A DNA stretch of 24,000 nt from positions 113,665-137,664 of the forward strand of contig NZ_KI912608.1 in the NCBI RefSeq assembly GCF_000519265.1, written 5' to 3'. This document shows positions 5,636 to 13,403 of the stretch, one piece after another. The position numbers and the translations under genes are program-made. The notes beneath the pieces are model-generated. The model did not search any database and was not told the origin of the DNA. It saw only the letters and a list, made by a program, of their open reading frames with translations. Numbering within the stretch: the first letter of the stretch is position 1; every line of letters begins with the position of its first letter. This DNA is from Desulfonatronum lacustre DSM 10312 (lineage in GTDB: Bacteria; Desulfobacterota; Desulfovibrionia; Desulfovibrionales; Desulfonatronaceae).

Positions 5636-5716
5636 TCCCGTGACCATTTTTTTTGTAACATCTCAAGCCATAGCGACCACGGCTCCCAAGCCAAGAACCC
5701 AAAAGGAATCCTGACC

Positions 5717-7465
5717 ATGACAATTGAACGCTTTGAAGAACTGAATCTATCCGAGGAAACACTGAAGGCCATTCAGGAAATGGGTTTTGAGGAGCCGTCG
5801 CCCATCCAGTCCCTGGCCATTCCCATGCTGATGCAGGGCCGGGACGTCATCGGCCAGGCCCAGACCGGAACGGGGAAAACCGTGGCCTTCGGCATTCCGG
5901 TCCTGGAACAGGTCGACCCCGCAAGCCGGGACATCCAGGCCATCGTGCTCTGTCCGACCCGAGAATTGGCCATCCAGGTGGCCGAGGAGCTGAATACTCT
6001 GGCCAAATTCCGCAAGGGAATCACCGTGCTTCCGGTTTACGGCGGGCAACCCATCGACCGGCAGATCCGAGTGCTGCGCCAGGGGGCGCAGGTGATCATC
6101 GGAACCCCGGGCCGGGTCATGGACCACATGGATCGAGGGACCATCAAGCTGGACAAGATTCGGGTCGCGGTCCTGGACGAGGCGGACGAGATGCTGGACA
6201 TGGGGTTTCGCGAGGACATCGAGAAGATTCTCCAGGCCGCGCCCACCAATCGCCAGACCGTGCTCTTCTCCGCGACCATGCCTCCTGAGATTCTGCGCCT
6301 GGCGGACACGTACCAGACGGACCGGCTGCTGGCCAAGGTGTCCCAGAAGGTGCTCACCGTGCCGAACGTCGAGCAGTTTTTCTACGAGGTGCCCCGTGGC
6401 TCGCGGCTGGAGGCCATGTGCCGGATCATCGACGTGTTCAACCCCAAGCTGAGCATCGTTTTTTCCAACACCAAGCGGAGCGTGGACCAGATCGTGGAGC
6501 ACCTCCAGGCCCGAGGGTACATGTCCGAGGGGCTGCACGGGGACATGAACCAAGTCCAGCGCGACCGGGTGATGGGCAAGTTTCGCTCCGGCAATGTGGA
6601 GATTCTGGTGGCCACGGACGTGGCCGCCCGGGGCATCGACGTGGATGATGTGGAGGCGGTCTTCAATTTCGATATTCCCAGCGACGTGGAGTACTATGTG
6701 CACCGTATCGGACGCACGGGCCGGGCCGGGCGAACCGGACGGGCCTTCACCTTTGCCTCGGGCCGGGAATTCTACAAGCTGCGGGACATCCAGCGGTTCA
6801 CCAAGGCCAAGATGGTCCAGCGCAGCGTGCCCAGCGTGGGCGACGTGGAGCAGGCCAAAACAGAAAAGTTCCTCAGCGGGATCCGGGAGAGTATGGTTCA
6901 GGGTGGTCTGGAAAATCAGGTTCGAGTGGTGGAGCACTTTTTGGAGAACGAACAGGTCTCTTCCCTGGATATGGCCGCGGCCATGCTGAAGATGCTCATG
7001 GGCCCGCCCAGGGAAGAGCAGAATGACGCGCTGCTGTTCAACGAGCAGTCCCGCGGTCGGCCCGGAGACCGGGATCGGGACCGGGATCGCCCTAGTGGCC
7101 CCCGCTTTCGGGAGAGCGGACCGCAGCAGGGCATGACCCGGCTGATGCTCAATGTCGGCCGCAATCAACAGGTGGAAGTGCGGGACGTGGTCGGGGCCAT
7201 TGCCGGAGAAACCGGTCTCTCGGGCAGGCAGATCGGCAAGATCGTGATGCAGGACAATCGCTGCTTCGTGGAAGTGCCCACGGAATTCGCCAAGGACGTG
7301 GTCCGGGTGATGGACGGAAACCAGATCCGGGGGCAACGGGTCGAGGCCAAGGAAGTCTCCGATGGCGGACGAGCCGACGACGACCAACGCCCTATGCGCA
7401 AGCGACCGGCCACGGTTCGTCCGTTTCGGGCCAAGCGACCTAACTCGCAAAGCTGGGACAGGTAG
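5717..7465 (+). CDS. deaD: DEAD-box ATP-dependent RNA helicase (DeaD/CsdA type) with C-terminal DbpA-like RNA-binding domain
   Basis: Motifs AQTGTGKT, PTRELA, DEAD (VLDEADEML), SAT, HRIGRTGRAG. RD/RDR-rich linker followed by a C-terminal RNA-binding-like domain. Confidence 0.9.
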   Translation: MTIERFEELNLSEETLKAIQEMGFEEPSPIQSLAIPMLMQGRDVIGQAQTGTGKTVAFGIPVLEQVDPASRDIQAIVLCPTRELAIQVAEELNTLAKFRKGITVLPVYGGQPIDRQIRVLRQGAQVIIGTPGRVMDHMDRGTIKLDKIRVAVLDEADEMLDMGFREDIEKILQAAPTNRQTVLFSATMPPEILRLADTYQTDRLLAKVSQKVLTVPNVEQFFYEVPRGSRLEAMCRIIDVFNPKLSIVFSNTKRSVDQIVEHLQARGYMSEGLHGDMNQVQRDRVMGKFRSGNVEILVATDVAARGIDVDDVEAVFNFDIPSDVEYYVHRIGRTGRAGRTGRAFTFASGREFYKLRDIQRFTKAKMVQRSVPSVGDVEQAKTEKFLSGIRESMVQGGLENQVRVVEHFLENEQVSSLDMAAAMLKMLMGPPREEQNDALLFNEQSRGRPGDRDRDRDRPSGPRFRESGPQQGMTRLMLNVGRNQQVEVRDVVGAIAGETGLSGRQIGKIVMQDNRCFVEVPTEFAKDVVRVMDGNQIRGQRVEAKEVSDGGRADDDQRPMRKRPATVRPFRAKRPNSQSWDR

Positions 7466-7480: not shown

Positions 7481-8440
7481 TTACACCAGGGCTCGCCAAA
7501 GACGCTCGGCCAAGCTCGCTTGACGCTGATCCAGACGGGTGATCCCGGCTTGGGCCGCGGCATTCAGAGCCTGGGCGAACTCCTCGCCGGTGAGCGGACG
7601 GCTCAGTTCCGGGAATGCGTTCGCGTTCCCGCACGGTCGGTATTGGTCCATGATGTTCACGTAGGTGTTCTGGGAGATTTTCCGGGCCAGGAATTCCATC
7701 CACTGTGCGGTTCCGGCCAGATCTTCCGGCATTACCAGATGCCGGACAAGCAGGCCGTGGACGGCGACGCCCCGATCGTCCAGCTCCAGGTCGCTCACTT
7801 GGCGGTGCATTTCTTTGATGGCTTCCCGGGCCCGTCCCGGGTAGTCCTCGGCCCGGCAGTACCGGGCGGCGGCTTCCGGGGCAAAGAATTTGGCGTCGGG
7901 CATGTAAATGTCCACCACGCCGTCAAGTCGGCGCAACGTCTCCAGGCTGTCGTATCCGCTGGAATTGTAGACCAGGGGCAAACACAGCCCCTGGTCCGCG
8001 GCAATGACCAGGGCTTCGAGGATCTGGGGCACGATGTGGGATGGGGTGACGAAATTGATGTTGTGGACGCCTTGAGCCTGCAATTCCAGCATGACGGCGG
8101 CCAGCTGTTCCGGAGTCGCCTCCGGAGCGTTCTTCCCGTGGTGGCTGATGTCGTGGTTCTGGCAAAATACGCAGGCCAGGTTGCACTGGGCGAAAAAGAT
8201 CGTTCCGGACCCACCGCTGCCCACCAACGGCTCTTCCTCCCCAAAGTGCGGGCTGTAGCTGGCCACCTTGGCCCAGCGACCGATCCGGCAAAAGCCCGAT
8301 TCCCCTTCGAGCCGGTTCACCCGGCACTGCCTGGGACACATGGCGCAGTCCCGTAGCGCCTCCACCGCCTCGGCGGCACGGGCGCGCAGTTCTCCGGCGG
8401 CGTGGAGTTGGAGATAGCCGGCTTCCGGCGTCTTGGTCAT
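7481..8440 (-). CDS. Radical SAM protein, PflX-like (homologue of pyruvate formate-lyase activating enzymes)
   Basis: CX3CX2C motif CNLACVFCQN and an N-terminal Cys cluster CAMCPRQCRVNR..GFC. Strong SD AAGGAGG upstream of ATG 8440. Convergent with deaD, 15 nt apart. Confidence 0.8.
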   Translation of the reverse strand: MTKTPEAGYLQLHAAGELRARAAEAVEALRDCAMCPRQCRVNRLEGESGFCRIGRWAKVASYSPHFGEEEPLVGSGGSGTIFFAQCNLACVFCQNHDISHHGKNAPEATPEQLAAVMLELQAQGVHNINFVTPSHIVPQILEALVIAADQGLCLPLVYNSSGYDSLETLRRLDGVVDIYMPDAKFFAPEAAARYCRAEDYPGRAREAIKEMHRQVSDLELDDRGVAVHGLLVRHLVMPEDLAGTAQWMEFLARKISQNTYVNIMDQYRPCGNANAFPELSRPLTGEEFAQALNAAAQAGITRLDQRQASLAERLWRALV

Positions 8441-8655
8441 GCCGTCCTCCTTGGTTTGCGATCACGCTCCTTTCCCAAAAAACTACCCAGGGACAAGGCG
8501 AATGTCACGGGCTCGGATCGCGTTCACAATTCCGAACCCTGGTTGCGGGAACGAAAGCAACGCGAAGCCAGGACTTGACGGCGTGGCCAAAGGCAGGGAA
8601 AAGAAGAGAAGGCATGAGGCTCTGATTTAGAATCCATTCCAAGAGGTTTCCCGCC

Positions 8656-8763
8656 ATGTTCATTTTCAGAAAATTCGCTCTCTCCGTCGAAGCATGGATA
8701 ATCGGCATCGGCCTTTTCGCGTTGTTTGGAGTGATGGATATTTACGCGGCGTTGGTCTTATGA
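8656..8763 (+). CDS. Candidate 35-aa small hydrophobic (single-TM) protein, below the ORF track cutoff
   Basis: ATG 8656 with AAGAGG 9 nt upstream. Translation MFIFRKFALSVEAWIIGIGLFALFGVMDIYAALVL. A plus-strand terminator lies about 100 nt downstream. No homology recognised. Confidence 0.3.
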   Translation: MFIFRKFALSVEAWIIGIGLFALFGVMDIYAALVL

Positions 8764-8837
8764 TGGGACTTGGTCTCCGCGAAACGTTTTTGACGAGCAA
8801 TTTCGCCGGCTGGATTTCACCGGAAACGGCGACATAA
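8760..8837 (+). CDS. Candidate 25-aa ORF overlapping the previous one by ATGA
   Basis: ATG 8760 overlaps TGA 8761-8763. Translation MMGLGLRETFLTSNFAGWISPETAT. Ends 24 nt before the terminator stem. Very weak evidence. Confidence 0.15.
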   Translation: MMGLGLRETFLTSNFAGWISPETAT

Positions 8838-8860
8838 CTTGTCGTGGTCCATGCGGTAAC

Positions 8861-8909
8861 AATGCCCGCGCCCTGGAACGGATACCGTTCCAGGGCGCGG
8901 GCATTTTTT
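8861..8909. terminator. Strong intrinsic terminator with plus-strand polarity; the hairpin could also serve the convergent FemAB-family gene
   Basis: Perfect 21-bp stem AATGCCCGCGCCCTGGAACGG (8861-8881) / CCGTTCCAGGGCGCGGGCATT (8885-8905), 3-nt loop, followed by a T run on the plus strand. On the minus strand it is followed only by TTGTTACC. Confidence 0.8.
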
Positions 8910-8947
8910 CGTGATGGAGGGAAGAGTGCGTGAATGGAGCCAGGCGG

Positions 8948-10042
8948 TTATAGACCGCTGTCCCTGGAAAGCGAGTCCGCGTTGCGATACGCGTTGTAGA
9001 CGTCTTCGTTCAGCGGATAGTCCCAGGAGCCGCTACGCAGTTCGATGGTCCCGCCGAATCCGGTCTTGAAGCGGAACAGTCCGTAAAAAGGATGGTCCGG
9101 CGCGGCCCCGGGCGAGACCGCTCCCATATCGTAGCGGGTGCAACCTCGGCTTCTGGCCAGCCGCATGGCGGCCCAGTGCAGGGCGTAGGAACCCATGAAC
9201 GTTCTGTTGGCCGTGGAGGAGGCACCGTGCAGGAAAACGGCGTTGCTCCCGGAAAGAGCGACGATCGCTCCGGCCAGCAGGTCGCTTTCATGCCCGGCCA
9301 ACAGGAAATGCAACTCCGAAGTGTTGGATTTTAGGGCGTGGGCCTGGAACAGAGCCGCGAAGTGGCGATAATCGCAGGAGGGAAAGCCGTTACGTTTGGC
9401 GGTCTGGCGGTACAGGTCATAAAATGAGGGCAGCTTGTCCATGGAGGCCGGGGTTACGACGACGCCCTTGCGCCGGGCCAGCCCGATATTGTAGCGGGTC
9501 TTCGCCTTCATCCCGGCCAGAATCTCCTCTTCCGGACGACTGATGTCCACGACCAGGGAACTGGCCACGGTCATGTCCATTTCCGCCTTGCGCAGGTTCC
9601 AGTGCCTGGTGCCGATGTTCATGCGCATTTCCCGGATGCGCGGTTCCGGAAAGGCGCTCCAGCTTTTGGCGTGCATTTCCCCGGCGTACCGGGACTCCCA
9701 GGGCAGGTCGTAACGGATGAAGGCCACGGAAGGGTCCAGATGGCGGATCAGCGCTTCGGAAAGTTCTTCGAGGTACTGGCCACGATGATCCCCGGGCGGA
9801 GCGTGCTCCGGCCCCTGGGGCACGAAGGCTCCCAGGCTATCCCGACCCACGGGCTGGAGCAGGACCAGGACGTCGCCGCGATTGTCTTGGGCCGGGTTGG
9901 AAGTCGGCTCTGGGGTAAGGATGTCGAAGGCCACCGGCCTACATCCCAGGCGGGATTTAACATGAGCCCAGTAGTCGGACTGGAACAGAATGTCCGTGGG
10001 CAAAAGGGACTGGGTCTTTTTGGGAGCGAGGCGGACAGACAT
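8948..10042 (-). CDS. FemAB-family (lipid II:glycine glycyltransferase-like) aminoacyl/peptidyl transferase
   Basis: FemAB-like blocks: AGMKAKTRYNIGLARRKGV, YDLYRQTAKRNGF, GASSTANRTFMGSYALHWAAMRLARSRGCTRYDMG. Start set at ATG 10042 because a minus-strand terminator (10096-10136) lies inside the longer 10147 version. Confidence 0.7.
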   Translation of the reverse strand: MSVRLAPKKTQSLLPTDILFQSDYWAHVKSRLGCRPVAFDILTPEPTSNPAQDNRGDVLVLLQPVGRDSLGAFVPQGPEHAPPGDHRGQYLEELSEALIRHLDPSVAFIRYDLPWESRYAGEMHAKSWSAFPEPRIREMRMNIGTRHWNLRKAEMDMTVASSLVVDISRPEEEILAGMKAKTRYNIGLARRKGVVVTPASMDKLPSFYDLYRQTAKRNGFPSCDYRHFAALFQAHALKSNTSELHFLLAGHESDLLAGAIVALSGSNAVFLHGASSTANRTFMGSYALHWAAMRLARSRGCTRYDMGAVSPGAAPDHPFYGLFRFKTGFGGTIELRSGSWDYPLNEDVYNAYRNADSLSRDSGL

Positions 10043-10095
10043 GATGGTGATGGATTCCGTATGAACGGTTGAACGAAAACGGGCAAGGGCCGTGG

Positions 10096-10136
10096 AAACA
10101 AACAAAAAGGGTTTCGGCCTTGCGGTCGAAACCCTT
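10096..10136 (-). terminator. Intrinsic terminator downstream of the ATP-grasp/Cys-rich gene pair
   Basis: Minus-strand RNA: AAGGGUUUCG - 10-nt loop - CGAAACCCUU, then UUUGUUUGUUU. The 10-bp stem is perfect (plus-strand coordinates 10107-10116 / 10127-10136). Confidence 0.7.
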
Positions 10137-10153
10137 AGTTTTGCCATGATAGG

Positions 10154-10191
10154 GAGAAAACCAGGTGGCCTTGCGATGCAAGGCTTTTCTC
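10154..10191. other. Compound hairpin: outer GAGAAAA/TTTTCTC, inner GCCTTGC-GAT-GCAAGGC
   Basis: Inner 7-bp stem at 10168-10184; outer A/T stem at 10154-10160 / 10185-10191 with a 7-nt asymmetric bulge. Shares the 8-mer GCCTTGCG with the loop of the terminator at 10117-10124. Confidence 0.35.
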
Positions 10192-10259
10192 AAGGATCCT
10201 CCAGGGGCAACGGAACGGAGACGCTCTTATCTGATTTCAAAGTTGTTGGCAACTATTGA

Positions 10260-10502
10260 TTATTTCTTGAGTTTCTTGGCCAGGAAAACACGCAGTGGGC
10301 AGCGGCAGAAGTAGTCGTGCCCGAAGGACAGGGCGAACGCGCAATCCAGGGGAGTATCCTCACGGCACTTGATATAGCCGTCCAGCCCGAAATCTCGGGC
10401 TTCGCAGAGATCTTCGAAATCTTGCTGCTTGCATCGGAATTCTTTTGGACACTCAATTTCGGACATGATCCGCTCGATGGTTTCAAGGTCTTGTTCATTC
10501 AT
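10260..10502 (-). CDS. Small (80 aa) acidic Cys-rich protein of unknown function
   Basis: ATG 10502 overlaps the ATP-grasp stop (ATGA, 10499-10502). Seven Cys (positions 18, 24, 33, 46, 54, 66, 68) including CRCP near a basic C-terminus AKKLKK. Visibly more AT-rich than its neighbours. Confidence 0.65.
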   Translation of the reverse strand: MNEQDLETIERIMSEIECPKEFRCKQQDFEDLCEARDFGLDGYIKCREDTPLDCAFALSFGHDYFCRCPLRVFLAKKLKK

Positions 10503-11470
10503 ACGACTGGGCTCTCTCTGTCGTTACGGCGTGTTTTCAAAAGCGGGTCGGCAACGACCTGGGCGATAGCTTGGGCGAATTCCTCTGCAGCTGGAAGGTG
10601 TTCGCGCAGCCAAAGTTCGGGTTCGATGAGTTCCAGTTCCATGACCGCCAGCTTTCCGTGTTCGTCCCGGACCATGTCCACTCGTCCGTAGCTCGGGGCC
10701 GGTTCGCAGGCGGCCATGGCGCGTTGGGCCAGTTCCACGTGCTCTCGTGTCGGTTCGAGGTGGTGGACCGTGCCGCCGTGGTCGTCCTGGACCCGGAAGT
10801 CTCCGGCCTTGGGAACCTTGCGCACGGCGTGGGTGACGCGGCCGTTGACGACCATCACCGTGTCCTCCCCGGTTTGGATCACGTCGTGGATGAACGGCTG
10901 GAGCAGGAAGGCCTCGGCGACGAGGAGCGGACGGACCTGCTCCTGAAGCGCGTCGGCGTCGTCGCGATGGACCCGGTAGGTGTGGCGGGCGCCGCCGGAA
11001 ACGCAGGGTTTGAGCACGGCCTCCTCCCATCCGGCGACTTCGAGCAATTCGCGCAGACTCTGGGGGGCGTCGGGTTCGAGAAGCCGGAACGGGACCACCG
11101 GAACGCCTCGGGCCTGCAAGTCCGCGAGATAGTGTTTGTCCAGGTTCCACCAGATGGTTTCCGGGGCGTTGCACAGCCGGGTCTGGGTTTGGACGCGGCG
11201 CAACCATGCACTGAATTCGACTATCCGATCAAAGTAGTCCCAAGTGGTCCGGAAGACGGCGCAGCGAAAAGCCGACCAATCCACGTCCGAAGCGGCCCAG
11301 TCCAGGCGGACCGAGGAAAGTCCGAGTGCCGCGAGGGCGTTTTGCAGCAACTCGTCGTCACGCAGGATGTTGCGCAGATACCAGTCGTCCGGGGCCGCGT
11401 CATTGTATGCGTAGCGGCTCTCGGTCAGGAGGGCCACGTCGGCTGTGGGGTGGTGGGGTACGGGGGGCAT
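10499..11470 (-). CDS. ATP-grasp domain protein (RimK/glutathione-synthetase-like ligase), substrate unknown
   Basis: 323 aa. N-terminal pre-ATP-grasp region (FRTTWDYF), central LKPCVSGGARHTYRV, C-terminal GRVDMVRDEHGKLAVMELELIEPEL, typical of ATP-grasp Mg/ATP-site strands. Confidence 0.8.
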   Translation of the reverse strand: MPPVPHHPTADVALLTESRYAYNDAAPDDWYLRNILRDDELLQNALAALGLSSVRLDWAASDVDWSAFRCAVFRTTWDYFDRIVEFSAWLRRVQTQTRLCNAPETIWWNLDKHYLADLQARGVPVVPFRLLEPDAPQSLRELLEVAGWEEAVLKPCVSGGARHTYRVHRDDADALQEQVRPLLVAEAFLLQPFIHDVIQTGEDTVMVVNGRVTHAVRKVPKAGDFRVQDDHGGTVHHLEPTREHVELAQRAMAACEPAPSYGRVDMVRDEHGKLAVMELELIEPELWLREHLPAAEEFAQAIAQVVADPLLKTRRNDRESPVV

Positions 11471-11556: not shown

Positions 11557-11832
11557 TTAACAGCATTGAGGAGCGCTGCTCTTCGGAAGCCATGTCTGGA
11601 TGATGTAGGCGGCGCAGCCGACGCCGGGCGTCACGCTCATGGCTTCGGTGGGGCAGTTCAGGGCGCAGGCCCCGCACTCCATGCAGGCTTCGCGGTCCTG
11701 GACGTGGGCTTTGTCGTTTTTCAGCGTAAAGACGCGGTGCGGGCAGACTGCGACGCAGAGGCCGCATCCCACGCACTTTTCCTGATCATAGGCCAAGGTG
11801 GCCACGTTTTGCAGATGACGGAATTGTTTCAT
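11557..11832 (-). CDS. hgcB: HgcB, 2x[4Fe-4S] ferredoxin of the mercury methylation pair
   Basis: 91 aa from ATG 11832 (GAGGA SD overlapping the hgcA stop). Two CX2CX2CX3CP motifs (CVGCGLCVAVCP, CMECGACALNCP), an extra Cys at position 73, and a C-terminal vicinal pair ..APQCC. The longer track ORF (to 12006) overlaps hgcA and is rejected. Confidence 0.9.
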   Translation of the reverse strand: MKQFRHLQNVATLAYDQEKCVGCGLCVAVCPHRVFTLKNDKAHVQDREACMECGACALNCPTEAMSVTPGVGCAAYIIQTWLPKSSAPQCC

Positions 11833-11843
11833 GGCATGCGTCC

Positions 11844-12848
11844 TCACTGAAGGTTTCCCCAGATAAAGCAGATCACGGACACCACAGTGGACCCGGCGAG
11901 GATGGGGATGGCCGCCCGCATTTCCTTTTCCACGCCGGAGGGCGACGTGTAGGGCGTGGAGCCGGTGAAGTTCAGGGCCGTCCAGGCAGACAGGGTCATG
12001 GTCCACAACCCCGCTCCCGCCAGGACGGGCCAGGCCGGAGTCGGGAAGAGCAACGGCAGGGCCAGGGCCGGGATCAGTCCCAGGCCGGCTCCGGCCAGGG
12101 AAAAGAGGCGGGTGGGCAGCCGGGGCAGCAGCAACGGAAAGGCCACCGTTCCGCCCAGCAGGCCGAAAAGGGTGGCCGTCGCGGCTACGGCCCAGCGCTG
12201 GAAAACGGCCCCAGGGGCAAACTCCGTCCCAATGAGGCCCAGCACCGCCGCCGCGGCCAGGACCGCGAGAATCATTTTCCAGCCCAGGACCAGCTCAACG
12301 GGTACCACGGCAAGCCGTTCCCTAAAGGTAAAGGTGATTTCCCGCATGGCCTCGTCGGGACCCTGATCCAGAAAACGCGGCAGATCTTCGGCCCGGATCG
12401 GTCCCAGGACGGCTTCGAATCCCGTGGCCTTGCGCACGTCCCGGAGCCGGACGCCGTTGGCGGCCAGTTGGGGCAGAATCAGGCGGCGATGGGACACGAC
12501 GCGGTCCAGGCCGGCCTTGCGGACCTGGACGGCCACGGCTTCGGCGTTGAAGGAGCCCTTGCCCCCGGCGCACCAGACATTGATGCCACGGGTGTCCGCC
12601 ACCAGCAACCAAGCGTTCCGCCCATGCAGGGCGAAGCGGACCGTGTCGAAGGTCAGCTTGTAGTTGGCCGTGACCACGACCGGGGCGTCTGGGGACGGGG
12701 CGCCGACGGCGTAGAGCCCCGGATTGACGGTATAGTTGTTGCGATCCAGTCCCAACCGGGCCCGGCAGTCGCCGAGGCGGTCCCACAATGTTGGACACGT
12801 TCTGACGCGGGGAACGCGCCCCGGCGGGGTGGTGATGAACCCGTCCAC
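11844..12848 (-). CDS. hgcA: HgcA, corrinoid protein of the mercury methylation pair (N-terminal corrinoid-binding domain plus C-terminal TM domain)
   Basis: Cap-helix motif NVWCAGGK at codons 90-97 (nt 12558-12581). About 5 hydrophobic helices in the C-terminal half. hgcB follows 11 nt downstream. GTG 12848 is the first possible start after an in-frame TGA and has no SD; see findings for the upstream in-frame leader. Confidence 0.9.
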   Translation of the reverse strand: MDGFITTPPGRVPRVRTCPTLWDRLGDCRARLGLDRNNYTVNPGLYAVGAPSPDAPVVVTANYKLTFDTVRFALHGRNAWLLVADTRGINVWCAGGKGSFNAEAVAVQVRKAGLDRVVSHRRLILPQLAANGVRLRDVRKATGFEAVLGPIRAEDLPRFLDQGPDEAMREITFTFRERLAVVPVELVLGWKMILAVLAAAAVLGLIGTEFAPGAVFQRWAVAATATLFGLLGGTVAFPLLLPRLPTRLFSLAGAGLGLIPALALPLLFPTPAWPVLAGAGLWTMTLSAWTALNFTGSTPYTSPSGVEKEMRAAIPILAGSTVVSVICFIWGNLQ

Positions 12849-12880
12849 ATAGGGTTCGATGCGATAGCCCGGCAGATCGT

Positions 12881-12901
12881 CGGCCCCCGCACCGGGGGCC
12901 G
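12881..12901 (-). promoter_or_regulatory. GC-rich hairpin 10-11 nt downstream of the in-frame TGA (SECIS-like geometry; alternatively a leader or attenuator hairpin)
   Basis: Minus-strand RNA: C GGCCCCCG GUG CGGGGGCC G, i.e. an 8-9 bp stem with an apical G-U-containing loop. The stem starts 10-11 nt after UGA (12914-12912). Confidence 0.3.
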
Positions 12902-12911
12902 GAGGCGGGCC

Positions 12912-13022
12912 TCAGCACGGTGCGGCGCCTGAATCGGGGCTTGGCCCGGTGGCGGGGGAAAGACCCGGAGTCGGGGTAGCGGGCAAGGGCGGGGCCATGG
13001 GAAAGGGCTGTAATGGTTTCAT
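12912..13022 (-). CDS. 36-codon Pro/Ala-rich leader ORF, ATGA-coupled to arsR, ending in Cys-TGA and in frame with hgcA
   Basis: ATG 13022-13020 overlaps the arsR stop TGA 13021-13019. Translation MKPLQPFPMAPPLPATPTPGLSPATGPSPDSGAAPC, then TGA at 12914-12912. Same frame as GTG 12848 (66 nt between the two codon starts). Coding status unproven. Confidence 0.3.
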   Translation of the reverse strand: MKPLQPFPMAPPLPATPTPGLSPATGPSPDSGAAPC

Positions 13023-13297
13023 GACGCTTCCAGCTTGGCGATGAGGTTCTTGAACAGAGTCAGGCGTGATTTGTCCACGCAGTAGCAAATGCGTGGCCCG
13101 TCGATTTCCCCCTGGATCAGCTCGGCGTCCTTAAGCAGCTTCAGGTGCTGGCTTACCGTGGATTGAGCCAAGGGGAGGATGTTCACGAGTTCGCCGCAAA
13201 CGCACCGGTCTGCTTGCAACAGGTGGAGCAGGATGGTCACTCGGGCCGGGTGGCCCAGGGCTTTGCAACATTGGGCAATGATCTGAACGTCGGTCAT
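13019..13297 (-). CDS. arsR: ArsR/SmtB family metalloregulatory repressor
   Basis: 92-aa winged HTH (LAQSTVSQHLKLLKDAELI). CVC metalloid-binding motif (DRCVCGEL) plus an N-terminal CC pair (AQCCKALGHP). GGGGAG SD upstream of ATG 13297. Confidence 0.9.
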   Translation of the reverse strand: MTDVQIIAQCCKALGHPARVTILLHLLQADRCVCGELVNILPLAQSTVSQHLKLLKDAELIQGEIDGPRICYCVDKSRLTLFKNLIAKLEAS

Positions 13298-13315
13298 GAG
13301 GCTCCCCGAATTGCT

Positions 13316-13335
13316 TTATCGTTAATAAACGATAA
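13316..13335. promoter_or_regulatory. Candidate ArsR operator: inverted repeat TTATCGTT-AATA-AACGATAA
   Basis: Perfect 8-bp arms with a 4-bp spacer, 19-38 nt upstream of the arsR start codon, overlapping the predicted -10 element. Confidence 0.5.
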
Positions 13336-13351
13336 GGCGGGGGAACGTCAA
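13322..13351 (-). promoter_or_regulatory. Putative sigma70-type promoter of arsR-hgcAB
   Basis: Minus strand: TTGACG (13351-13346), 18 nt spacer, TATTAA (13327-13322). Motif match only. Confidence 0.4.
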
Positions 13352-13403
13352 TTCATCATCGTGAGAGGGTCGATGCACTGCTGCGAGCGTCGGCCTTGTA
13401 AGT

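Follow-up and report, generated by a model that had tools for sequence, protein, structure and literature searches.

An in-frame UGA upstream of the annotated start of hgcA in Desulfonatronum lacustre, probably read as selenocysteine in a longer HgcA

The methylmercury-forming protein HgcA is encoded in Desulfonatronum lacustre DSM 10312 within an arsR-hgcA-hgcB gene order on the minus strand, as identified by Pfam and NCBIfam searches of a stretch of 24,000 nucleotides (contig NZ_KI912608.1, positions 113,665 to 137,664; "the window" below means the whole of this stretch). As annotated, hgcA begins at a GTG at position 12848, yet its reading frame extends upstream through a single TGA to an ATG that overlaps the stop codon of arsR, and the question addressed here is how that TGA is read. 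A first-pass annotation made from the sequence had offered three options: a 58-residue extension at the N-terminus of HgcA that bears a cysteine-selenocysteine (Cys-Sec) dyad, a regulatory upstream open reading frame (uORF) with a hairpin that couples hgcA translation to arsR, and a TGC-to-TGA nonsense change or plain coincidence. The features on which the argument turns are the following.

11844-13022, minus strand: hgcA in its proposed full-length form, 392 codons plus stop, from ATG 13022 to a TAA/TGA stop at 11846-11844, with one UGA (putative Sec37)
GTG 12848 to 11844, minus strand: hgcA in its annotated short form, 334 residues; GTG 12848 would be Val59 of the long form
12915-13022, minus strand: N-terminal 36 codons of the proposed hgcA (the "leader"), MKPLQPFPMAPPLPATPTPGLSPATGPSPDSGAAPC, last codon Cys36
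12912-12914, minus strand: in-frame TGA, the proposed Sec37 codon, in the motif P-C-U-G-P
12849-12911, minus strand: 21 codons between the TGA and GTG 12848, GPPPAPGAGADDLPGYRIEPY
12881-12901, minus strand: hairpin of the selenocysteine insertion sequence (SECIS) type within the proposed hgcA coding sequence, 9-bp G+C stem and GUG loop
13019-13297, minus strand: arsR, a metalloregulator of the ArsR/SmtB family, 92 residues (Pfam HTH_5, NF033788)
11557-11832, minus strand: hgcB, a 91-residue ferredoxin with 2x[4Fe-4S] (NF040864, Pfam Fer4)

The ArsR of the window is identical to WP_028570974.1 of Desulfonatronum lacustre. The HgcA core scores 369.8-370.7 bits against NF040863 (cut-off 275), long and short forms alike, and also matches Pfam CdhD; it carries the cap-helix motif NVWC93AGGKG (short-form numbering), which conforms to the family signature N(V/I)WCA(A/G)GK, and the model of a homolog places helices in the C-terminal half, where HgcA's transmembrane domain would be expected. 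The adjacent hgcB starts 12 nt past the hgcA stop, with the same gene call in D. zhilinae, and its product scores 125 bits against NF040864 (cut-off 99).

The layout of the frame is as the first-pass annotation had described it. On the minus strand ATG 13022-13020 overlaps the arsR stop TGA 13021-13019 in an ATGA string; the 36-codon frame MKPLQPFPMAPPLPATPTPGLSPATGPSPDSGAAPC ends in TGC 12917-12915 and is followed by TGA 12914-12912 in the same frame as hgcA, from which 21 sense codons (GPPPAPGAGADDLPGYRIEPY) lead without interruption to GTG 12848. That GTG has no Shine-Dalgarno sequence, no purine-rich run of this kind preceding it (...catcgaaccctatGTG). From ATG 13022 through the TGA to GTG 12848 the frame holds no other stop, and between the TGA and GTG 12848 D. 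lacustre has not a single ATG, GTG or TTG. At the position of the internal GTG (Val) that serves as the annotated start in Desulfomicrobium, D. lacustre has GCC. With GCC there and no start codon available, the conserved peptide DDLPGYRIEPY could be made only through decoding of the UGA or from a non-canonical start. The residues flanking the UGA, AAP-C-[TGA]-G-P-PP, spell the pentapeptide PCUGP, whose first P is replaced by A or V at some other loci, and read-through would yield the peptide AAPC-U-GPPPAPGAGADDLPGYR. By itself, an open frame in DNA as rich in G+C as this is weak evidence, and the single sequence lies barely beyond chance; decisive support comes from comparison with other genomes rather than from this one sequence.

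For that comparison HgcA extended by the 21 upstream codons served as the query of a homolog search, and the DNA upstream of hgcA was translated in 30 genome and 23 metagenome loci, the window being included in all counts. A C-[stop]-G-P motif was found in 37 sequences, and the stop was TGA in 37/37 and TAA or TAG in none. Ten loci have TGC or TGT at the aligned codon, TGA thus accounting for 37 of the 47 motif-bearing loci, and 7 distant loci lack the motif. The TGA occurs in Desulfonatronum, Desulfomicrobium, Desulfovibrionaceae, Desulfobulbaceae, Desulfocapsaceae, Desulforhopalus and Desulfotalea. Homologs of about 400 residues possess a conserved N-terminal extension, ...(L/F)PM(A/F)xP...(D/E)xPCCGPPxxPxSSxxE(R/K)PGYxIxxFV..., to which the window sequence MKPLQPFPMAPP...AAPC[TGA]GPPPAPGAGADDLPGYRIEPYV aligns with its TGA on the second Cys of CCGPP. 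Among 30 such long HgcAs with Cys at this site (the Cys form), the first Cys and the following Gly never vary, and conservation of the second Cys is 90% or more. The alignment of spacers that the first-pass annotation had put forward as a check therefore came out in favor of coding: the frame is conserved, and TGA stands opposite TGC or TGT codons in 10 loci.

The same comparison shows that the start of this gene is misplaced in many database entries. Many homologs annotated at 346 residues begin M/VDDLPGYRIEPYV, and a group of proteins of 346-349 residues (P0004-P0039 and P0054) starting M/VDDLPGY... begin at an internal GTG that would be a Val of the read-through protein (GAG-V-DDLPGY). Even an NCBI entry that bears the name HgcA, that of Desulfomicrobium salsuginis (P0036), still has the mis-annotated start, and the members of the window's HgcA cluster in the protein collection are all truncated forms of 303-346 residues. 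The first residue covered by NF040863 itself is 70 in the long form and 12 in the short form, so that both the CU extension and PGYRIEPYV lie outside the model; it is consequently unable to flag truncated annotations.

Sequence on either side of the UGA evolves as protein. In 16 distinct Desulfovibrionales sequences, with differences counted against the window, the 21 codons after the TGA vary at 7, 3 and 19 columns at codon positions 1, 2 and 3 (of 21 each) and show 120 synonymous against 30 non-synonymous codon differences; the next 63 codons, annotated as hgcA, are under looser constraint (351:254). Third-position variation starts directly past the UGA, at columns 6, 9 and 12 within GPPPAPGAG, and translation must therefore cross the UGA. 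The 21-codon stretch also aligns to residues annotated as protein in the homologs of 346 and about 400 residues, and similarity runs through the TGA (...PFPMAP...PC[U/C]GPP...PGYRIEPYV...), both sides being present in 37 loci. Upstream, in 17 Desulfovibrionales loci, synonymous changes leave the start motif M[KE]PLQPFPMAP intact; the Pro/Ala/Ser linker that follows ranges in length from 19 to 36 codons. The extension is thus more than the low-complexity leader of the earlier description: its linker is variable, but MKPLQPFPMAP at one end and PCUGPPPAPGAG.DDLPGYRIEPY at the other are conserved. A single base separates D. zhilinae from the window here, the architecture being the same, and a metagenome-assembled genome (MAG; locus L001) whose HgcA is 90% identical has the ATGA junction, 36 codons, TGA and hairpin as well. 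This MAG has Thr in place of the second Met (Met9), which favors the first ATG as the start.

Leaders of the Desulfomicrobium type (L003-L009, L017, L021, L031-L040) carry additional Cys pairs, PCSGPC, PCAPSC, SCEAPC and PCHDQC, between PFPMAP and the CU dyad; none occur in D. lacustre, D. zhilinae or L001. In some lineages such linker pairs may add metal ligands.

The hairpin that the first-pass annotation had noted downstream of the UGA was likewise confirmed. It extends from C12901 to G12881, with a 9-bp stem (12901-12893 paired with 12889-12881) and the loop G12892-U12891-G12890, at 10 nt from UGA to stem and 19 nt from UGA to loop (12911-12893). The bacterial SECIS consensus of Zhang & Gladyshev, whose prototype is Escherichia coli fdhF, is summarized in PMC13188914 (Fig. 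2) as a loop of 3-9 nt, a stem of 4-16 bp, a UGA-to-loop distance of 16-37 nt and a minimum free energy of -7.5 kcal/mol or lower, with a G at loop position 1 or 2 and, as a rule, a G or U next to it on the 3' side. The window hairpin lies within each of these bounds: its apical loop has 3 nt (GUG), its upper stem 9 bp, its loop begins G then U, the loop is 19 nt from the UGA, and the 21-nt element folds at -19.3 kcal/mol (z = -3.2), a stability reached by 0 of 200 shuffles. Like the known elements, it is a stable stem-loop inside the open reading frame just 3' of the UGA with a small loop beginning G-U or G-G; it differs from them in combining a 3-nt GUG loop with a 9-bp stem made entirely of G:C pairs, in having no identified bulged U, and in matching no Rfam model. 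It is accordingly called here a putative SECIS element, and recruitment of SelB by it is proposed from these sequence features.

Given that the coding register is identical in all loci, gapless alignments of the hairpin region are valid. Among 12 Desulfovibrionales sequences (11 distinct), 92% of the cells of an 8-bp stem are paired; sliding the 3' arm by 1-3 columns lowers this to 33-56%. Three pairs show compensatory double changes, 15:33 (G:C/C:G), 18:30 (C:G/U:A) and 21:27 (U:A/C:G), each joining the third base of one codon to the third base of another, and the covariation score was matched by 0 of 500 column shuffles. The Desulfobulbales have a second class of hairpin (L011, L013-L015, L020, L022, L029, L044, L046, L049-L051), which lies about +15 to +30 nt after the TGA and consists of a 5-bp stem (UCCAC/GUGGA) and a 6-nt GGUCYR loop; 100% of its cells are paired, and its closing pair is seen as U:A, C:G, G:C and U:G. 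This GGUC-type loop we take to resemble that of fdhF. The second hairpin is three columns out of register with the first (i+j = 51 versus 48), over a peptide that reads GPK(P/A)(P/D)PRS(S/G)G and not GPPPAPGAG, although G-G-U stands in the same columns of both classes. A single SECIS alignment for all loci with the TGA (the Sec form) was tried and rejected because the registers differ, and the two classes were analyzed separately. Homologs of the Cys form have no hairpin at this position, and Sec-form sequences fold better than their own shuffles whereas Cys-form sequences fold worse (mean z -0.44 versus +0.77; Mann-Whitney p = 5e-4, computed without phylogenetic correction).

A third hairpin variant is present in a saline-lake MAG (L010:4454-4500), which reads KGC-[TGA]-GPPPGPGFGPDDRPGY; it is GGGCCCG-GCUU-CGGGCCU, with a 7-bp stem and a 4-nt loop whose first base is G.

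Taken together, the comparisons make it very likely that 13022-12849 is the true 5' part of hgcA and that its UGA encodes selenocysteine in a full-length HgcA of 392 residues, with Cys36-Sec37 in the PCUGP motif. The first of the three options, a Cys-Sec dyad in a 58-residue extension of HgcA, is thus the one supported, the TGA falling on a conserved Cys, its flanks evolving as protein and its hairpin covarying. It had been objected that a start at GTG 12848 reproduces the canonical Cys93 numbering; so it does, but that numbering is an artefact of the truncated annotation, and Cys93 is Cys151 in full-length HgcA.

How the hgcA start relates to arsR bears on the strongest alternative. An SD-like GGAAG at 13031-13027 stands ahead of the hgcA ATG, and with the upstream start the gap between arsR and hgcA in D. 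lacustre shrinks from 171 nt to the 4-nt ATGA overlap, which would imply translational besides transcriptional coupling. The same overlap is found in D. zhilinae and L001, while in other Desulfovibrionales the hgcA ATG lies 2-8 nt past the arsR stop, which is often itself within a TAGGA SD-like string; over the Desulfovibrionales loci as a whole the distance is 0-8 nt. In Pseudodesulfovibrio mercurii ND132, too, an ArsR/SmtB regulator directly adjoins hgcAB upstream on the same strand, where it is co-transcribed with and regulates hgcAB (Gionfriddo et al., bioRxiv 10.1101/2022.10.17.512643); a start extended through Sec is absent from the discussion in that study, which has 0 occurrences of "selen". 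Translational coupling of arsR and hgcA is, judging from this arrangement, plausible. The characterization of the element as arsR-coupled holds for this lineage, with its conserved tight junction, but not for Sec-form hgcA in general: Sec-form hgcA has no upstream arsR in the Desulfobulbales loci, and arsR precedes the Cys form of hgcA in loci of Desulfobacterales. On these grounds, together with the missing arsR upstream in L001, coupling was rejected as something common to the Sec form at large.

In L001 (MAG GEM2.Bin26, 5700-5830) the last bases of arsR and the ATGA junction are kept (ctggaagcatcATGA), and a tblastn search upstream of its hgcA found no arsR body; the loss could reflect deletion, rearrangement or an assembly artefact. 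Upstream of arsR in the window, an 11-nt inverted repeat (GCTTTATCGTT / AACGATAAGGC, 13313-13338, 91% complementary, 4-nt spacer) lies about 16 nt from the arsR ATG at 13297 and is a plausible candidate for an ArsR operator in autoregulation of arsR-hgcAB.

The conserved overlap and tight junction in Desulfovibrionales would suit a regulatory uORF, in which a 36-codon leader peptide terminates at the UGA, re-initiation or mRNA stability is under the influence of the hairpin, and hgcA, coupled to arsR, is translated from GTG 12848 with the N-terminus MDGFITTP... Two further points can be entered on its behalf, namely that the short form of ND132 made from the annotated start is enzymatically competent and that Sec read-through is usually inefficient, so that a terminated 36-residue peptide is probably made as well. 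The model nonetheless fails, because Cys-form orthologs are one continuous open reading frame across the site. Further, the 21 codons past the UGA are strongly constrained as protein yet have no canonical start of their own here, the stop is never TAA or TAG, GTG 12848 has no Shine-Dalgarno sequence, and the Sec-form hgcA of Desulfobulbales has the same TGA and a hairpin with no arsR upstream. A uORF of this kind is consequently quite improbable. Read-through to an extended HgcA but without selenocysteine is more doubtful still. The UGA might be decoded by a near-cognate tRNA (Trp or Cys), or a product containing DDLPGYRIEPY might arise from a non-standard start such as CTG 12875-12873, for which the G-run 12888-12884 could be a weak Shine-Dalgarno sequence about 9 nt upstream. 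Conservation, however, reaches upstream of this CTG and abuts the UGA (GPPPAPGAG, columns 6, 9 and 12), the exclusive alternation of TGA with Cys codons alongside a SECIS-type hairpin is the signature of selenocysteine and not of leaky stops, and Sec machinery is encoded in 20/20 species with this arrangement in the survey of Haft & Gwadz (bioRxiv 10.1101/2022.07.06.499078). Least credible is decay of an ancestral CC-type extension by a TGC-to-TGA nonsense mutation, with the gene now starting at GTG 12848 and the frame and hairpin as relics or coincidence: the extension is indeed missing in some HgcAs (7/53 loci without the motif) and G+C hairpins are common here, but a relic would gather frameshifts, other stops and non-synonymous changes, whereas the TGA is kept in 37 loci across several orders with purifying selection downstream (7/3/19 and 120:30), the hairpin shows compensatory changes and it is missing specifically from Cys forms.

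A number of observations nevertheless weigh against decoding of the UGA as selenocysteine, or against the role proposed below for the residue. Open frames are common in this G+C-rich stretch, which has open reading frames of 198 and 154 residues in other frames, and folding of a 91-nt region around the hairpin is no better than that of shuffles (z = +0.34), both of which would also fit decay of the frame. The covariation amounts to 5 compensatory cells in 11 distinct rows, drawn from few and related sequences, and the hairpin overlaps the conserved peptide APGAG, so that part of its conservation is coding constraint; to this may be added the phylogenetically uncorrected nature of the Sec/Cys fold contrast. 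Scanned against Rfam with E up to 10, positions 12600-13400 yielded only three chance-level matches, to models of small nucleolar and long non-coding RNAs, and no SECIS family, although the generality of Rfam models for this class is not established. Neither a tRNA nor a sel gene was found among the open reading frames of the window when tRNA-Sec and sel genes were sought there. In the literature no experimental report of selenium in any HgcA was found, and a 2024 PNAS study of purified HgcAB says of homologs only that they "may be selenoproteins". The same study showed Hg methylation in lysates with truncated ND132 HgcA that had the annotated start and a His-tag and was produced in E. coli; basal activity therefore does not require the CU arm. 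Finally, a metal-binding role for the CU pair is suggested by analogy only.

At the level of the family the selenocysteine reading of HgcA is already known, and the present result is an independent re-discovery. Haft & Gwadz (bioRxiv 10.1101/2022.07.06.499078; J Bacteriol 2023;205:e00259-22) concluded that the majority of HgcAs are selenoproteins and carry an N-terminal CU motif, a dipeptide otherwise rare among selenoproteins: DND132_1056 of P. mercurii ND132, GSU1440 of Geobacter sulfurreducens and 18 other short HgcAs, 20/20 in all, extend through a single UGA to lengths of 363-400 residues with PCUGP invariant. HgcA (NF040863) also stands among the CU selenoproteins in a 2026 review. The D. 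lacustre protein resembles these Sec forms in having a single UGA upstream of the annotated start, the identical PCUGP followed by ...PGY..EPFV, a length (392 residues) within the range of 363-400, and a database entry truncated, as theirs are, at or after the UGA. A difference is that the earlier work gives no SECIS structure for hgcA and makes no mention of arsR, whereas in D. lacustre the hgcA start overlaps the arsR stop and DDLPGYRIEPY lacks any alternative canonical start. The name Desulfonatronum does not occur in the accessible parts of that paper and its supplements, nor does the accessible part of the supplementary HgcA alignment contain a match to PLQPFP, DDLPGYR or PFPMAP; similarly, the literature search returned no paper combining Desulfonatronum with selenocysteine, and the supplements of Peng et al. 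2016 hold no mention. What is added here is modest: the covariation of the SECIS element, its two classes, the ATGA overlap and the absence of an alternative canonical start in D. lacustre. Long HgcAs of the Cys form (for example P0060, P0063 and P0119, the last from Olavius symbiont Delta 1) carry the homologous extension on the same corrinoid and transmembrane core, but have TGC or TGT for TGA, no hairpin after it and often extra Cys in the linker. Past the motif their peptide reads GPxSSPxER as against APGAG.DD in the Sec form, presumably since no RNA structure constrains it there.

If the UGA is decoded as selenocysteine, ribosomes would start at ATG 13022 on the shared arsR-hgcAB transcript, with initiation probably coupled to arsR translation given that this ATG overlaps the arsR stop, and would translate 36 codons ending in Cys. 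At UGA 12914-12912 the hairpin 12901-12881 would recruit SelB with Sec-tRNA(Sec), selenocysteine would be inserted, and translation would continue into the corrinoid-binding domain, giving a 392-residue product with a flexible arm that carries Cys36-Sec37 about 20 residues before the first ordered element. Since there is no start between the UGA and GTG 12848 and no Shine-Dalgarno sequence at that GTG, HgcA with DDLPGYRIEPY should depend on Sec decoding.

A flexible N-terminal arm bearing a chalcogen pair fits the predicted structure. In an AlphaFold2 model of the Cys-form homolog P0060 (30-sequence alignment, mean predicted local distance difference test score, pLDDT, 81.7), residues 8-48 are predicted to be disordered (pLDDT <50), with CC at residues 49-50 on the edge of this tether; PGY...FV then orders into the first beta-hairpin of the corrinoid domain, pLDDT rising from 47 to 94 across the equivalent of the 21-codon segment. 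Most speculative is the suggestion, by analogy, that the Cys-Sec pair is most likely a ligand of Hg(II), or of another soft metal(loid), which it would hand on to the methyl-corrinoid. A role in metal capture is suggested by the C-terminal CC of HgcB and by the CU or CC of MerB-like SaoL and MerT-type proteins. The CC of HgcB and MerA and the CU of SaoL/SaoB/SaoC and of the MerT family are, like the HgcA arm, vicinal chalcogen pairs on a flexible terminal segment of an Hg-handling protein; unlike the C-terminal Cys-Cys tails of HgcB and MerA, however, the HgcA arm is N-terminal, and truncated HgcA is still active in vitro. A bolder proposal joins both ideas: in D. lacustre and its relatives the supply of selenium would strictly gate the production of functional HgcA, ribosomes coupled from arsR otherwise releasing a Cys-terminated peptide of 36 residues and making little or no HgcA, and the Cys-Sec arm would be the physiological acceptor of Hg(II) or a native soft metal(loid) for delivery to the methyl-corrinoid. 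This combined proposal is tentative and, on present indications, rather unlikely.

HgcA makes a neurotoxin, and nearly all genetic, modelling and biochemical work on it, the 2024 HgcAB purification among it, has been done with the truncated protein and its "Cys93" numbering. If the native enzyme has a Cys-Sec arm, the substrate-binding step of the mechanism is incomplete, metagenome surveys of hgcA rely on incorrect gene boundaries, with an internal GTG or ATG as the start in many database entries, and selenium availability could influence methylation capacity; all three points have already been raised by Haft & Gwadz. Were selenium gating true, methylmercury formation would be tied to selenium availability at translation, and were the Cys-Sec pair the acceptor, this part of the mechanism would have escaped studies of the truncated "Cys93-numbered" protein.

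The surroundings of the locus provide some further observations. A blastn search of the region against plasmids gave no match. Elsewhere in the window are gltX, a nifU-like gene, rpmB, plsX-fabH-fabF, a DEAD-box helicase, a GH57 gene and others. HgcB has a Cys at residue 73, a position reported as Sec in about 6% of HgcBs (Haft & Gwadz, bioRxiv 10.1101/2022.07.06.499078), and ends in Cys-Cys; a terminator-like hairpin (11553-11539) follows hgcB. Downstream of hgcB on the minus strand (window 7481-11470) lie genes for an ATP-grasp protein (GSH-S_ATP/RimK, DcsG_N in D. zhilinae; 11470-10499), an 80-residue Cys-rich open reading frame (10502-10260) that overlaps the ATP-grasp gene, a FemAB-family protein (10147-8948) and a radical SAM protein (8440-7481). 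The ATP-grasp, Cys-rich and FemAB genes are syntenic in D. zhilinae.

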